Positions 2,966 through 6,161 are shown, counted from the first letter of the stretch. The stretch is 64,000 nucleotides of DNA from Candidatus Saccharimonadota bacterium (GCA_050486185.1 JBJHCT010000001.1:6919-70918), one strand, 5' to 3'. The notes: a model not told the origin generated them from the letters alone. Translations and numbers: made by a program.

Positions 2966-4027
2966 ATGAATACAAGATTCAAAACAACCCCAAGAACCAA
3001 CAAACTAGCAGTTTCTTTGGTGTTATTTATGGCTCTTGGCATATCTATTGGCCATGGAAGTGTTATGGCTGGTGATCTTGATGAGCGAAGCCTTACAATG
3101 AGCTCATCTGCACCTAATGAGGTAGCTGACTATACCCTAGAGTTTGTAGTAGAGTTACAAACAGCAATACGGAGTCTAGAAGTTGAAGTTTGTAGTGAGC
3201 TAGATGAGGGGAGTTGTCAAACTCCAGATGGTTTTTCAGCAGCTAGCGCAACACTCGAAACTCAACCGGTTGGCTTTGGAGATACGACAGGCTGGTCCAT
3301 CGATAATAGCGATTCGGGTAAGCTTAGAATTAGTCATGCCGACAACACAACGAGCCCAGGAGCATTGCAGCAAGTAACATTTAATAATGTTACTAACCCA
3401 GAAGACCCTAATAAAACTTTCTTTTTGAAAGTCACAACTTTTTCTAATAGTGACTATACAGGCGCTATAGATGATGGTGTTATAGCGGTAACTACCTCTA
3501 CAGCTGTAACCGTAAGAGGGTTTGTTCAGCCGGTCTTGTCATTTTGTGTAGCTATTACTATATCTGGTGATTGCTCTACAGCTAGTGGCAGTCACATTAA
3601 TTTTGGCGAATTCAATCCAAACTCTACATCGGTAGCTACTTCACAGATGAGAGCTCATACTAATGCAATAGATGGGTACGTTATAACTGTCACAGGAGCT
3701 ACTTTGGCTTCAGGTTCTAATATTATACCGGCCATGTCGTCGTTCGGATCTTCTGAGCCGGGCACAGGACAGTTTGGTATCAATCTAGCAAACAACACCA
3801 ATCCAAATGCTGGTAGCGGTATTGCAGGTGGTGGCAATGGTTCTATAGTTGCTAACTACGCTCAACCGAATCTATTTAAGTTTGAGTCTGGCGACTTATT
3901 AGCTAGTGCCCCCGGAGTAACAGCAGATAATACCTACACAACTACATACATAGCTAATATTACTTCTGATCAACCACCCGGTGTATACGCTGCGACATTG
4001 ACATACATTATTACAGCAACATTTTAG
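2966..4027 (+). CDS. Secreted Thr/Ser/Gly-rich surface protein (hypothetical; possibly a WxL-like domain)
   Basis: 353 aa. It has an N-terminal signal peptide (KLAVSLVLFMALGISIGHGSVMA) and is Thr/Ser/Asn-rich. A W-x-I motif (TGWSID) and a C-terminal '...GVYAATLTYIITATF' are reminiscent of WxL-type cell-surface domains (from memory; needs an HMM check). It is the first gene of a three-gene surface cluster. Confidence 0.55.
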   Translation: MNTRFKTTPRTNKLAVSLVLFMALGISIGHGSVMAGDLDERSLTMSSSAPNEVADYTLEFVVELQTAIRSLEVEVCSELDEGSCQTPDGFSAASATLETQPVGFGDTTGWSIDNSDSGKLRISHADNTTSPGALQQVTFNNVTNPEDPNKTFFLKVTTFSNSDYTGAIDDGVIAVTTSTAVTVRGFVQPVLSFCVAITISGDCSTASGSHINFGEFNPNSTSVATSQMRAHTNAIDGYVITVTGATLASGSNIIPAMSSFGSSEPGTGQFGINLANNTNPNAGSGIAGGGNGSIVANYAQPNLFKFESGDLLASAPGVTADNTYTTTYIANITSDQPPGVYAATLTYIITATF

Positions 4028-4122
4028 AGTCGCTACAGTCATTTTTGGTAAGTAAGTGTTGTCTGTGTCAGAATGGTTGTATATAATCTAGCTTAAGCTT
4101 ACTAAAACCAAAGGAAAGAGTT

Positions 4123-5265
4123 TTGTTGATTAAAGAAAACCCAATCAAGTTACAGAACGTATCAAAAAGATTTAACTCACTTTCTTGGTTTTACTATGTA
4201 GCCTTAGGTATAACACTGACAGCAGGTTTATTATTGTGGATTAGTATATCAAGTGTTATTGCTCAAACAAATGGAGGGCAGGGTTTAAGTATATCCCCTC
4301 CACTAATAAGCCTTGAGGCAGATCCTGGCGAGACGGTAGAGCTAGATATTACCTTACGTAATATAACTGGTAGAGATATGGTCGTTAGGGGTGAAGTTAA
4401 TGATTTTGTAGCTAGAGACGAATCTGGTGAGCCTATGATACTGCTAGATGATGATGTTGAGTCTTCATATTCTTTGAAAAGGTACATATCTAGCATTCCA
4501 GAGCTACCAATAGCTGCCGATGAGCAAGTAGTAGCTACGGTATCGGTAGTAATTCCCGAGAATGCTAGCCCAGGAGCTCACATGGGGGTTATTAGATTTA
4601 GTGGAGTTTCTTCCGGTTCTGATACTGATGGTAGTCAAGTAGCTTTGTCTGCTAGTGTTGGGACCTTAGTCTTGATAAACGTCTCAGGTGACGTCGATTC
4701 TAGTTTGAGTATCGAAGAGCTGGCCGTTATGGCTGTAGATGGCGATAGTGATTTATCTACCAAAGTGAGAAGCACCGATAGCAGTATGAATTCAGGGTTC
4801 TTAGATAGCGGCCCATTAACAGTTGCGCTTAGGTTGAGCAATACCGGTAATATATATCTACAACCTCAGGGTAGTATTACTATTACCAATATATTTGGCA
4901 GAGAGGTAAATCTGAATTCTAGTGATGAGGATAATGATTCTGAAGATAAGTCTATAGTCTTTAACTCAGACAAGAGAAATGTTTTGCCAGAATCTATTCG
5001 TAGAATCGAACAACCACTAGATAAGTCTTTCTGGTTTGGCAGGTATACTCTAACTGCTGATATAGAGTATGGCCCTGATAGGGAAACCGTTAGTCAAAGC
5101 CTTAGTTTTTGGGTGATACCATACAAAAACATAGCGATTGCTTTGGTGATTATTGCTACATTAACTATTCTTGGTGTAAAGGGTCTGAAGATGTATAATC
5201 GTCATATAGTAACTAAGTTCCAACAGGGTAATCAACAAAAAGTCAAAACGGACAAGAAGAAATGA
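4123..5265 (+). CDS. Cell-surface protein with N-terminal signal anchor and C-terminal TM anchor (hypothetical; DUF916/CscA-like?)
   Basis: 380 aa with a probable TTG/GTG start. It has an N-terminal hydrophobic segment and a C-terminal TM (IAIALVIIATLTILGV) followed by a basic tail (KMYNRH...KKK). The N-terminal 'GLSISPPLISLEADPGETVELDITLRN' resembles the DUF916 consensus as recalled, and there is an acidic Ser/Asp-rich middle region. Confidence 0.55.
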   Translation: MLIKENPIKLQNVSKRFNSLSWFYYVALGITLTAGLLLWISISSVIAQTNGGQGLSISPPLISLEADPGETVELDITLRNITGRDMVVRGEVNDFVARDESGEPMILLDDDVESSYSLKRYISSIPELPIAADEQVVATVSVVIPENASPGAHMGVIRFSGVSSGSDTDGSQVALSASVGTLVLINVSGDVDSSLSIEELAVMAVDGDSDLSTKVRSTDSSMNSGFLDSGPLTVALRLSNTGNIYLQPQGSITITNIFGREVNLNSSDEDNDSEDKSIVFNSDKRNVLPESIRRIEQPLDKSFWFGRYTLTADIEYGPDRETVSQSLSFWVIPYKNIAIALVIIATLTILGVKGLKMYNRHIVTKFQQGNQQKVKTDKKK

Positions 5266-6161
5266 TAAAAACCCAGCAAAATTTAATAAGTTTGGCATCT
5301 AAACAGAGTAAGCTTTTAATAGCAACCATCTTGTCAGTACTCTTATTAGCACTGCTGGCCAGTAGTAGCGCTTTTGGTCAATCACTAGATGATCCCGATA
5401 GCCCTCAAGACGGCTCGATAGGTATTAGCGGCTCTGTTCCCGGCCCACCTCCAGAGAATGCAGCTACTATTAATACACCCATCAACGGTCAAAGTTTTAC
5501 GTCTATACCCATAACCGTCAGCGGTACCTGTGAAGCAGGCCTAATAGTGGAGGTATACAAGAATAATGTATTTGGTGGTTCTGCTGAATGTCTAGAAAAT
5601 GCTACTTATGAGATGGAAGTGGATTTATTCCAAGGCGAGAACGAACTAGTAGCTCGAATTAAAGACCTGCTAGGACAGTCTGGACCAGATTCTGAACCAG
5701 TAACAGTAACTTATCAGCCAGTAGATCCATCTGGATCAGCGATTCAACAGCTATTACTCACTAGTGATGCTTCATATATGGGCGCGCTACCTTCGGAAGA
5801 AGTTTCTTTTCCTCTAGCTATCTCGGGAGGTTCAGGCCCGTATGCTATTAGCGTAACGTGGGGTGATGGTGAAAGTGATGTGCTGAATCTCAACGACACC
5901 GGTAATTTCCAGATATCACACAGCTACACAATCCCAGGCGTCTATAAAGTAACAGTGAGAGCTGCTGACAGCCAGGATTCGGCTGCCTTCTTGCAGCTCA
6001 CAGCTGTAATTAGCGGTCAGGCTACTGATACAGAACCTATTGGTGCTCAGACTAGGGTAGTTACTGAAGTGGTGCGTTGGCCGCTTTATGTAATGCTAGT
6101 ATTGATTGCTGGTGGCTTTTGGATGGGTATGCGCCATCAAAAGAAGCGCTACGAAATATAG
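5262..6161 (+). CDS. Secreted PKD-domain surface protein with C-terminal membrane anchor
   Basis: 299 aa. The start overlaps the previous stop (ATGA). It has a signal peptide, and the PKD signature 'VTWGDGESD...HSYTIPGVYKVTVRAADSQDSA'. The C-terminus carries a hydrophobic helix plus basic tail (LYVMLVLIAGGFWMGMRHQKKRYEI). Confidence 0.7.
   Translation: MIKTQQNLISLASKQSKLLIATILSVLLLALLASSSAFGQSLDDPDSPQDGSIGISGSVPGPPPENAATINTPINGQSFTSIPITVSGTCEAGLIVEVYKNNVFGGSAECLENATYEMEVDLFQGENELVARIKDLLGQSGPDSEPVTVTYQPVDPSGSAIQQLLLTSDASYMGALPSEEVSFPLAISGGSGPYAISVTWGDGESDVLNLNDTGNFQISHSYTIPGVYKVTVRAADSQDSAAFLQLTAVISGQATDTEPIGAQTRVVTEVVRWPLYVMLVLIAGGFWMGMRHQKKRYEI

Follow-up and report, generated by a model that had tools for sequence, protein, structure and literature searches.

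The locus described here lies in a 64,000-nucleotide stretch of Candidatus Saccharimonadota bacterium (GCA_050486185.1 JBJHCT010000001.1:6919-70918), which is referred to as the window at its full length. Three co-oriented genes, named ORF1 to ORF3 (ORF, open reading frame), form an operon of exported and anchored surface proteins. The operon very probably is a minimal pam operon of Saccharimonadales, members of the candidate phyla radiation (CPR), with one pilin, one chaperone and one anchor. An earlier reading made without database searches (the sequence-only reading) had proposed three genes, which are present exactly at the positions it gave (Table), and products of the same three lengths are found in an independent gene call of a public contig. 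The last two genes are translationally coupled, as had been proposed, and AAAGGAAAG stands 5′ of the TTG start of ORF2. N-terminal signal-type segments were detected by hydropathy in ORF1 (residues 13-36), ORF2 (20-48) and ORF3 (14-42), in agreement with the earlier claim that all three products are exported. C-terminal membrane helices followed by basic tails are present in ORF2 (329-358, KMYNRH...KKK) and ORF3 (266-288, MRHQKKRYEI). The strong terminator noted previously at the end of the operon was confirmed; its hairpin has a folding energy of -16.8 kcal/mol (z = -4.5), and none of 200 shuffled sequences folded equally well. The 95-bp spacer between ORF1 and ORF2 was checked for a regulatory hairpin and is unstructured (z = 0.47). 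A promoter scan gave a site count no higher than that in shuffled sequence.

Table. Features of the pam locus, its flanks and the actinobacterial loci used for comparison. Nucleotide positions are those of the window unless another locus (L006 to L008) is named; aa, amino acids; TM, transmembrane segment.
Feature	Position	Strand	Remarks
ATP synthase beta and epsilon genes (atpD, atpC)	129-1687	+	Conserved flank of pam operons
Divergent neighbour	1692-2798	-	368 aa; single TM 91-118; between atpC and the pam genes
ORF1	2966-4027	+	353 aa, ATG start; Pam-type pilin
ORF1 parts			Signal peptide ~1-35; N-terminal beta-sandwich ~36-180; linker; C-terminal pilin domain 186-353
ORF1 linker, residues 181-199 (VTVRGFVQPVLSFCVAITI)	3506-3562	+	Candidate donor strand
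ORF2	4123-5265	+	380 aa, TTG start; chaperone-like, DUF916/WxLIP family, membrane-anchored
ORF2 parts			Signal/TM 20-48; beta domain 1 55-187; beta domain 2 195-331; TM 329-358; basic tail
ORF2 domain 1 (55-187), DUF916-like	4285-4683	+	PF06030 alignment; hairpin 151-187
ATGA overlap, ORF2 stop / ORF3 start	5262-5265	+	Translational coupling
ORF3	5262-6161	+	299 aa, ATG start; PamR
ORF3 parts			Signal peptide 1-39; N-terminal strand 51-60; Ig-like 69-148; PKD-like 179-241; TM 266-288; basic tail
PamR strand 51-60 (GSIGISGSVP)	5412-5441	+	Directly past the signal peptide, then Pro-rich spacer
Intrinsic terminator	6194-6233	+	15-bp interrupted hairpin 6194-6227, then U6 6228-6233
WxL-like exported proteins upstream of actinobacterial DUF916 genes	L006 5061-5705; L008 5101-5727; L007 3867-5807		In L007, C-terminal ~190 aa

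Pam pili, recently described for ultrasmall CPR bacteria, are known from filaments of Candidatus Mycosynbacter amalyticus, for which cryo-electron microscopy (cryo-EM) at 2.8 and 3.6 Å identified the pilins PamA and PamB. The filaments are formed by donor-strand assembly, in which the linker of one subunit completes the C-domain of its neighbour. Further products of the operon are PamE, the tip pilin PamT, which consists of the C-domain only, and the chaperones PamC (WP_260763277.1) and PamD (WP_260763284.1), which are PapD/FimC-like with a C-terminal TM helix, so that M. amalyticus has three pilins, PamT and two chaperones. PamR, an RbmA-like protein with an N-terminal strand, two fibronectin type III-like domains and a TM helix, is the proposed terminator and anchor, and the conserved flank of the operon comprises ATP synthase genes and a 'tail-fibre-like' gene (bioRxiv 10.64898/2026.03.03.709456). 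The NCBIfam Pam models NF058578, NF058579 and NF058581 derive from this 2026 preprint. ORF1 matched NF058581 (CPR_Pam_pilin_C) over residues 207-353 with 153.6 bits, against a cut-off of 55, and ORF3 matched the equivalog model NF058578 (CPR_pilus_PamR) with 323.9 bits, against a cut-off of 300. NCBIfam was decisive for the identification of the locus as Pam.

The structure of ORF1 was modelled as a monomer with AlphaFold2 (AF2), as was that of ORF2. The ORF1 model (predicted local distance difference test, pLDDT, 90.3) begins with a signal helix, continues as a beta-sandwich (residues 39-176) and, past a linker of low confidence (177-190), ends in a beta domain (191-353). Two Cys pairs, which are 76/84 and 194/203 in ORF1, are kept in its family, which also shares the motifs V-P-E-x-L-x-F-C and G-x-Y-x-T-T-L-T-Y-I-x-T-A-T-F, the former belonging to a hydrophobic beta segment at 181-199 in which pLDDT falls to 66 (181-190). 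By analogy with the PamA and PamB structures, this linker is a candidate donor strand for completion of the C-domain in the adjacent subunit. The mature protein of ~33 kDa is smaller than PamB (38.7 kDa) and PamA (55 kDa), and it matches the Pam pilin C-domain family without being tied to one Pam pilin orthologue. An indexed search found 62 homologues. With the family profile, 3,292 clusters at 50 % identity were obtained at E<=1e-3 and 997 at E<=1e-30, and all 150 matches listed in an exhaustive HMMER search with the pilin profile are strong pilins. These counts, with the 161 homologues of ORF2, lie far above what chance would give. No Pfam family matched ORF1, and nothing useful came from searching the PDB by sequence with ORF1, with the ORF2 family or with a WxL profile. 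Separate hidden Markov models (HMMs) of the two pilin domains cross-match weakly, for example the N-terminal one on residues 224-282 and the C-terminal one on 45-65 and 96-133. These cross-matches could reflect an ancient internal duplication or merely a shared Thr/Ser-rich beta-strand composition.

ORF1 had been taken for a WxL-like protein in the sequence-only reading, which pointed to its Thr/Ser-rich composition, a W-x-I motif and a C-terminal ATLTYIITA. All of these are indeed present; Ser and Thr make up 23.5 % of the residues, the W-x-I motif is GWSI (109-112) inside the N-terminal domain, and the protein ends in ...ATLTYIITATF. The assignment itself was rejected by every sequence test. 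The WxL model PF13731 matched none of 48 family members at E<=1, and in hhalign comparisons with three individual WxL proteins, with a 36-sequence WxL profile and with the trimmed domain, the probability was 0.04-1.5 %. With the 36-sequence profile the local value was 0.4-0.6 %, and the global alignment scored 1.5 with a probability of 0.04 %. Only the last strand is alike (AGxYxTTLTYI in Pam, AKxYxTTLTWxL in WxL), a likeness that is suggestive and not significant.

ORF3 had been described as a PKD-domain protein with a C-terminal anchor. The anchor was confirmed, and the PKD domain proved borderline: PF00801 scored 22.8 bits (E 9.6e-5, residues 179-241, motif TWGDGE), just below the gathering threshold of 23.5. 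Glucodextran_B of Pfam was also sub-threshold (24.4 bits against 27), and a weak PKD match is seen in the PamR homologue of one related locus (L011). ORF3 is a PamR equivalog, for which a role as pilus terminator and membrane anchor is predicted. The motif S-x-G-[IL]-[ST]-G-x-[VMI]-P is kept in all seven aligned PamR homologues. In ORF3 it falls in the strand 51-60, which is a candidate capping donor strand on the model of the preprint.

WxLIP (CscA) proteins, which are composed of DUF916 (PF06030), DUF3324 (PF11797) and a TM helix, are encoded in the Csc/WxL clusters of Enterococcus, Listeria and Lactiplantibacillus (Hassan et al. 2023, PMC10599100). Other defining components of such clusters are two or more WxL-domain proteins (PF13731) and a small LPXTG protein (CscD), which often comes with a sortase. 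ORF2 is a homologue of these proteins in its first domain, as indicated by family profiles, hhalign and the fold match. The sequence-only reading had recognised a DUF916-like motif at the N-terminus of ORF2 (LSISPPLISLEADPGETVELDITLRN, residues 55-80), together with the C-terminal TM helix and basic tail. The DUF916 assignment holds at the level of family and fold. ORF2 alone is sub-threshold with PF06030 (16.4 bits, E 0.0094, residues 64-160; cut-off 27.3), and 39 of 53 aligned members of its family match the model, with a best E of 3.5e-10. Some of the 161 homologues of ORF2 are named 'DUF916 domain-containing protein' by NCBI. When the ORF2-family profile was aligned by hhalign with a genuine Enterococcus DUF916+DUF3324 protein, 90.8 % was obtained (E 1.2e-6), and the family HMM found the Enterococcus WxLIP at 1.7e-6. 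PF11797 was found in none of the 53 family members at E<=0.01, and the control Enterococcus WxLIP gave 155 bits.

The AF2 model of ORF2 (pLDDT 86) starts with a signal/TM helix, which is followed by a pair of beta-sandwich domains and by a long helix at the C-terminus. In a Foldseek search of the PDB, the top matches were EfmWxLIP1 (9i1y, E 4.5e-11) and 9i25, 'bound to long WxL' (4.7e-10). Both were confirmed as true WxLIP, and the 9i1y alignment spans both domains over ~300 columns. RbmA followed (3.3e-8), and then the pilus chaperones CfaA, Caf1M, CsuC and FimC (1e-7 to 1e-5), interspersed with unrelated multi-Ig proteins. ORF2 and WxLIP are built alike, each with a signal peptide, a pair of Ig-like domains, a TM helix towards the C-terminus and a basic tail. 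For each of them it is predicted that a donated beta-strand completes the beta-sandwich in an adjacently encoded partner. In contrast to WxLIP, the second domain of ORF2 does not match PF11797, and the conserved NQIDKxxxYFDLK motif is replaced by ISPPL..L.ADPG. The partners also differ, being Pam pilins for ORF2 and WxL-domain proteins for WxLIP, and WxLIP has been interpreted as a wall or host linker, not as a pilus chaperone. The hairpin of the first ORF2 domain combines a lower-confidence loop (161-180, pLDDT 73-77) with the conserved alternating strand SLSASVGTLVLINVSG, in which L175, A177, S178, G180 and L182 are invariant columns and the family pattern is SLSASVGTLxLxNVSG. By analogy with the WxLIP-WxL and PamC/PamD-pilin models, this strand is a candidate for donation to the pilin. 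ORF2 fits PamC and PamD, which are PapD/FimC-like with a C-terminal TM helix, by architecture and fold alone. In the mass spectrometry table of the preprint supplement (Table S1), 'pamC' (QHN42421.1) is listed at 119 kDa. This mass does not fit a two-domain chaperone of ~35-40 kDa and may be a labelling issue in the preprint; it bears on any comparison between ORF2 and PamC.

Related loci were compared with the window. The closest relative (L001) comes from a Saccharimonadales metagenome-assembled genome, in which PamR is 74 % identical and the order is the same as in the window, namely atp genes, minus-strand gene, pilin, ORF2-like gene and PamR. The reduced three-gene operon is thus kept at 63-74 % identity between two genomes. 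Six more distant loci (L003, L004, L009, L010, L011 and L012) were annotated with NCBIfam and local HMMs. All six carry PamT, then one or two two-domain pilins and then an ORF2-like gene; PamR comes next in five, the exception being L009, where no PamR match was found. Over the eight CPR loci, the window included, pilin and ORF2-like gene follow each other in every case and PamR is next in seven. Co-occurrence of the trio is conserved because this gene order recurs across related loci, and the grouping of the three genes as a unit in a CPR genome, proposed in the sequence-only reading, was borne out.

The flanks of these loci fall into several types. Four of the eight (the window, L001, L004 and L012) stand directly after atpA-G-D-C and the minus-strand gene, three (L003, L010 and L011) follow a SurA-like rotamase, and the flank of L009 is different. 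The minus-strand gene is syntenic in the same four loci (524-550 bits with a local HMM). Its product has a low-complexity N-terminus and a repetitive Gly/Asn/Ser-rich C-terminal region, matches nothing in Pfam, NCBIfam or PHROG, and is probably the 'tail fibre-like' neighbour of the preprint. On the 1.1-Mb JGI contig of L009, an ORF of 460 amino acids (5383-6765) lies between PamT and the pilin. It has no match to the local pilin HMMs and might be a PamA-like larger pilin.

Of the features that define the Pam system, the locus in the window shows all those tested apart from PamT, the correspondence to PamC and PamD being one of architecture and fold only. In ORF1, a linker joins an N-terminal beta-sandwich to a Pam C-domain that scores above cut-off; ORF3 is the PamR equivalog; and ORF2 is chaperone-like, has two beta domains and is anchored by a TM helix. 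All components carry signal peptides, the ATP synthase and 'tail-fibre-like' flank is present, and the origin is CPR (Saccharimonadia). The operon differs from that of M. amalyticus in having one pilin in place of PamA, PamB and PamE, one chaperone in place of PamC and PamD, and no PamT. A second Pam C-domain (PamT or a paralogue), a second chaperone and a second PamR were searched for in the 64 kb by phmmer and by six-frame hmmsearch --max, and none was found.

A mechanism can be proposed from the cryo-EM and AlphaFold work on M. amalyticus and from the work on WxLIP. ORF1, ORF2 and ORF3 would be exported by Sec. ORF2, tethered at the outer face of the cytoplasmic membrane, would hold the newly exported pilin by inserting a beta-strand of its hairpin (151-187) into that pilin's C-terminal domain, which is incomplete on its own. 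The linker strand (~181-199) of one ORF1 subunit would then displace the chaperone strand in the C-domain of a neighbour by donor-strand exchange, and this polymerisation would need neither an usher nor ATP. The N-terminal strand of PamR would cap the last subunit, with its C-terminal helix tying the fibre to the membrane, and the fibre would reach the host bacterium. As the 64 kb encode no PamT, the tip would be formed by the first ORF1 subunit itself, unless PamT is encoded elsewhere in the genome. The sequence-only reading had suggested an adhesion module for host attachment in a CPR episymbiont, and a host-contact module remains plausible for this operon.

Several observations weigh against a Pam pilus at this locus. 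Neither the window nor the L001 locus contains PamT, the proposed nucleating tip subunit, and ORF1 reaches only 97.6 bits with the PamT model NF058579, whose cut-off is 240. ORF2 is likened to PamC and PamD by description only, no NCBIfam model matching it, and the full-length ORF1 model retrieves only generic tandem-Ig matches in the PDB. The filaments observed by cryo-EM are those of M. amalyticus and not of the organism described here. The assembly pathway of the preprint, which is not peer-reviewed, is itself largely AlphaFold-based. The missing PamT, which is present in the six more distant loci, and the reduction from three pilins, PamT and two chaperones to one pilin and one chaperone could also be attributed to a non-polymerising remnant, in which PamT, the extra pilins and a chaperone were lost and a single ORF1 adhesin is held permanently on the membrane by ORF2, PamR or both. 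This explanation is improbable. ORF1 keeps the full architecture of N-terminal domain, linker and C-terminal domain with conserved linker and C-terminal motifs, and the reduced operon is conserved in two genomes. A two-domain pilin at the tip would in principle need no PamT, which moreover may be encoded elsewhere in the genome.

The sequence-only reading had compared the cluster with the Csc/WxL surface complexes. In a complex of this type, a DUF916/DUF3324 protein would fix WxL proteins to the wall by non-covalent contacts, and these would bind polysaccharide or host surfaces without forming a polymer. This comparison is partly supported, because ORF2 is a true WxLIP homologue, ORF1 is not a WxL protein and no LPXTG protein or sortase is present. 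The logic of the clusters is also parallel, a small WxL protein, a large WxL protein with N-terminal domains and a TM-anchored WxLIP standing against PamT, a two-domain pilin and a TM-anchored chaperone, and a stable WxLIP-WxL heterocomplex has been crystallised (9i25). Such a complex is nevertheless unlikely at this locus, since the ORF1 family lacks a WxL domain, the ORF2 family lacks DUF3324, and homologous pilins form filaments in cryo-EM. The three proteins carry no LPXTG signal and no sortase gene was found in or next to the operon, which has a PamR equivalog instead; in a canonical WxL cluster (L005), an LPXTG protein and a sortase are both present. Non-covalent wall attachment and polysaccharide binding are therefore not indicated, and a donor-strand pilus anchored in the membrane is the better model. 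A classical chaperone-usher pilus or a sortase-dependent Gram-positive pilus is the least probable of the alternatives. The fold of ORF2 resembles the chaperones CfaA, Caf1M, CsuC and FimC, and the ORF1 model has weak tandem-Ig matches to MSCRAMM-type adhesins and CfaE. Against this, no usher-sized or PapC-like gene lies in or near the operon (a PapC_C match on the minus-strand ORF, E 0.98, is noise), the sorting signal and sortase of a sortase-dependent pilus are lacking as described above, and the ORF2 chaperone has a membrane helix and is not soluble.

The predicted pilus of this locus shares with chaperone-usher pili (Pap/Fim, CFA/I, Caf1 and Csu) the two-domain Ig-like chaperone fold, a presumed donor-strand complementation and exchange, and a dedicated terminator subunit (cf. 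FimI and PapH). It differs from them in several respects: both usher and outer membrane are lacking, the chaperone carries a membrane anchor, the pilin contains an additional domain at its N-terminus, and the donor is an internal linker and not an N-terminal extension. No sequence similarity to chaperone-usher pili is detectable.

The closest non-CPR sequence relatives of ORF2 that were found are actinobacterial plasmid DUF916 proteins, which account for nine of 11 weak ORF2 tblastn matches. With the ORF2-family HMM, E values of 1.5e-20 (Clavibacter, both domains), 2.1e-14 (Cellulosimicrobium) and 1.5e-13 (Streptomyces) were obtained. Like the ORF2 family, these proteins contain DUF916 only and no PF11797. 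The gene upstream encodes a small exported protein of ~210 amino acids in two of the three loci and a RICIN-domain protein in Streptomyces, where a WxL-like domain forms the C-terminus of the lectin. All three upstream proteins end in ...G(S/D)Y..T(L/I)TL(T/S)L and carry the WxL-like motifs VTVTDTR..GWYV and G.WTA..LTLKTP..GDYSSTLTL; the Pfam WxL model did not match them at E<=0.1. In contrast to the pam operon, the partners lack the Pam C-domain, the neighbours are carbohydrate-active proteins (GH43/LamG) and PamR is absent. These clusters may be an unannotated branch of the WxL/WxLIP system. As a bridge between Pam pilins and WxL proteins, the small actinobacterial proteins were rejected as too weak (~10 % in each direction, one motif covered each).

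Pam pili, the actinobacterial DUF916 clusters and the Csc/WxL clusters of Firmicutes could tentatively be regarded as branches of one ancient usher-less fibre system of single-membrane cells, although we consider this doubtful. Small WxL proteins would then correspond to PamT, large WxL proteins to the two-domain pilins, WxLIP to PamC, PamD and ORF2, and the LPXTG protein CscD to PamR. A membrane-anchored chaperone of the DUF916/WxLIP type would donate a strand to an incomplete beta-sandwich subunit, the N-terminal WxL strand tethered by a long linker would be the donor, and donor-strand exchange would serve to polymerise WxL proteins or at least to chaperone them. The present results support the homology of the chaperones; they support neither that the subunits are homologous nor that WxL proteins polymerise.

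The locus itself is a routine, pared-down example of a pilus system described in 2026 and already curated at NCBI. Its value lies in correct annotation within a very large family (~3,300 clusters at 50 % identity). To judge from its gene content, a core of one pilin, one chaperone and PamR may suffice, which would make the locus a convenient minimal system for reconstitution. Of wider interest is the link between Pam and WxLIP, the chaperone-like protein being a homologue of DUF916/WxLIP in sequence and fold. The homology also places Pam pili in an evolutionary context that includes Actinobacteria, the hosts of cultivated Saccharibacteria. The preprint sets Pam apart from every filament system characterized before and relates the chaperones to Pap/Fim only; the words WxL, DUF916, DUF3324, Enterococcus and Csc do not occur in its text (bioRxiv 10.64898/2026.03.03.709456). 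Pili, in turn, are not considered in the WxLIP papers. What WxLIP does in the WxL clusters, which are linked to virulence and adhesion in enterococci, listeriae and lactobacilli, is debated. The homology leads to the testable hypothesis that WxLIP proteins act as strand-donating chaperones and are relatives of the Pam chaperones, with a possible part in fibre assembly.

The remaining window is ordinary chromosome, with genes for PriA, class II ribonucleotide reductase, aminoacyl-tRNA synthetases, a penicillin-binding protein, SecDF, HtrA and an LCP protein. Directly past the pam terminator lies a gene for a KGG-repeat stress protein (6267-6583, 66 amino acids; PF10685, 25.6 bits against 20.4), upstream of which the best sigma-70-like site of the region was found (6267-6296, TTGACA-18-TATATT, 11/12 matches). 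A gene on the minus strand (6636-7109) encodes a protein of 157 amino acids (151 in the independent gene call, L002) with the HExxH-type motif LLHEIGHAELDH, a weak M78/IrrE-like match and a Cys-rich, zinc-ribbon-like C-terminal segment; it adjoins a ROK-family kinase gene at 7099-7917. At 8059-8415 on the plus strand, a protein of 118 amino acids is encoded that has a TM segment at its N-terminus and an acidic middle part rich in Thr and Glu. The C-terminus (...ELATTGP, a hydrophobic stretch and KSRR) resembles an LPXTG-like sortase sorting signal, and it has weak matches to type IV secretion system pilin and TrbC models (E 0.03-0.04). At the corresponding position of the L001 locus (10776-11180), a plus-strand ORF of 134 amino acids is present.

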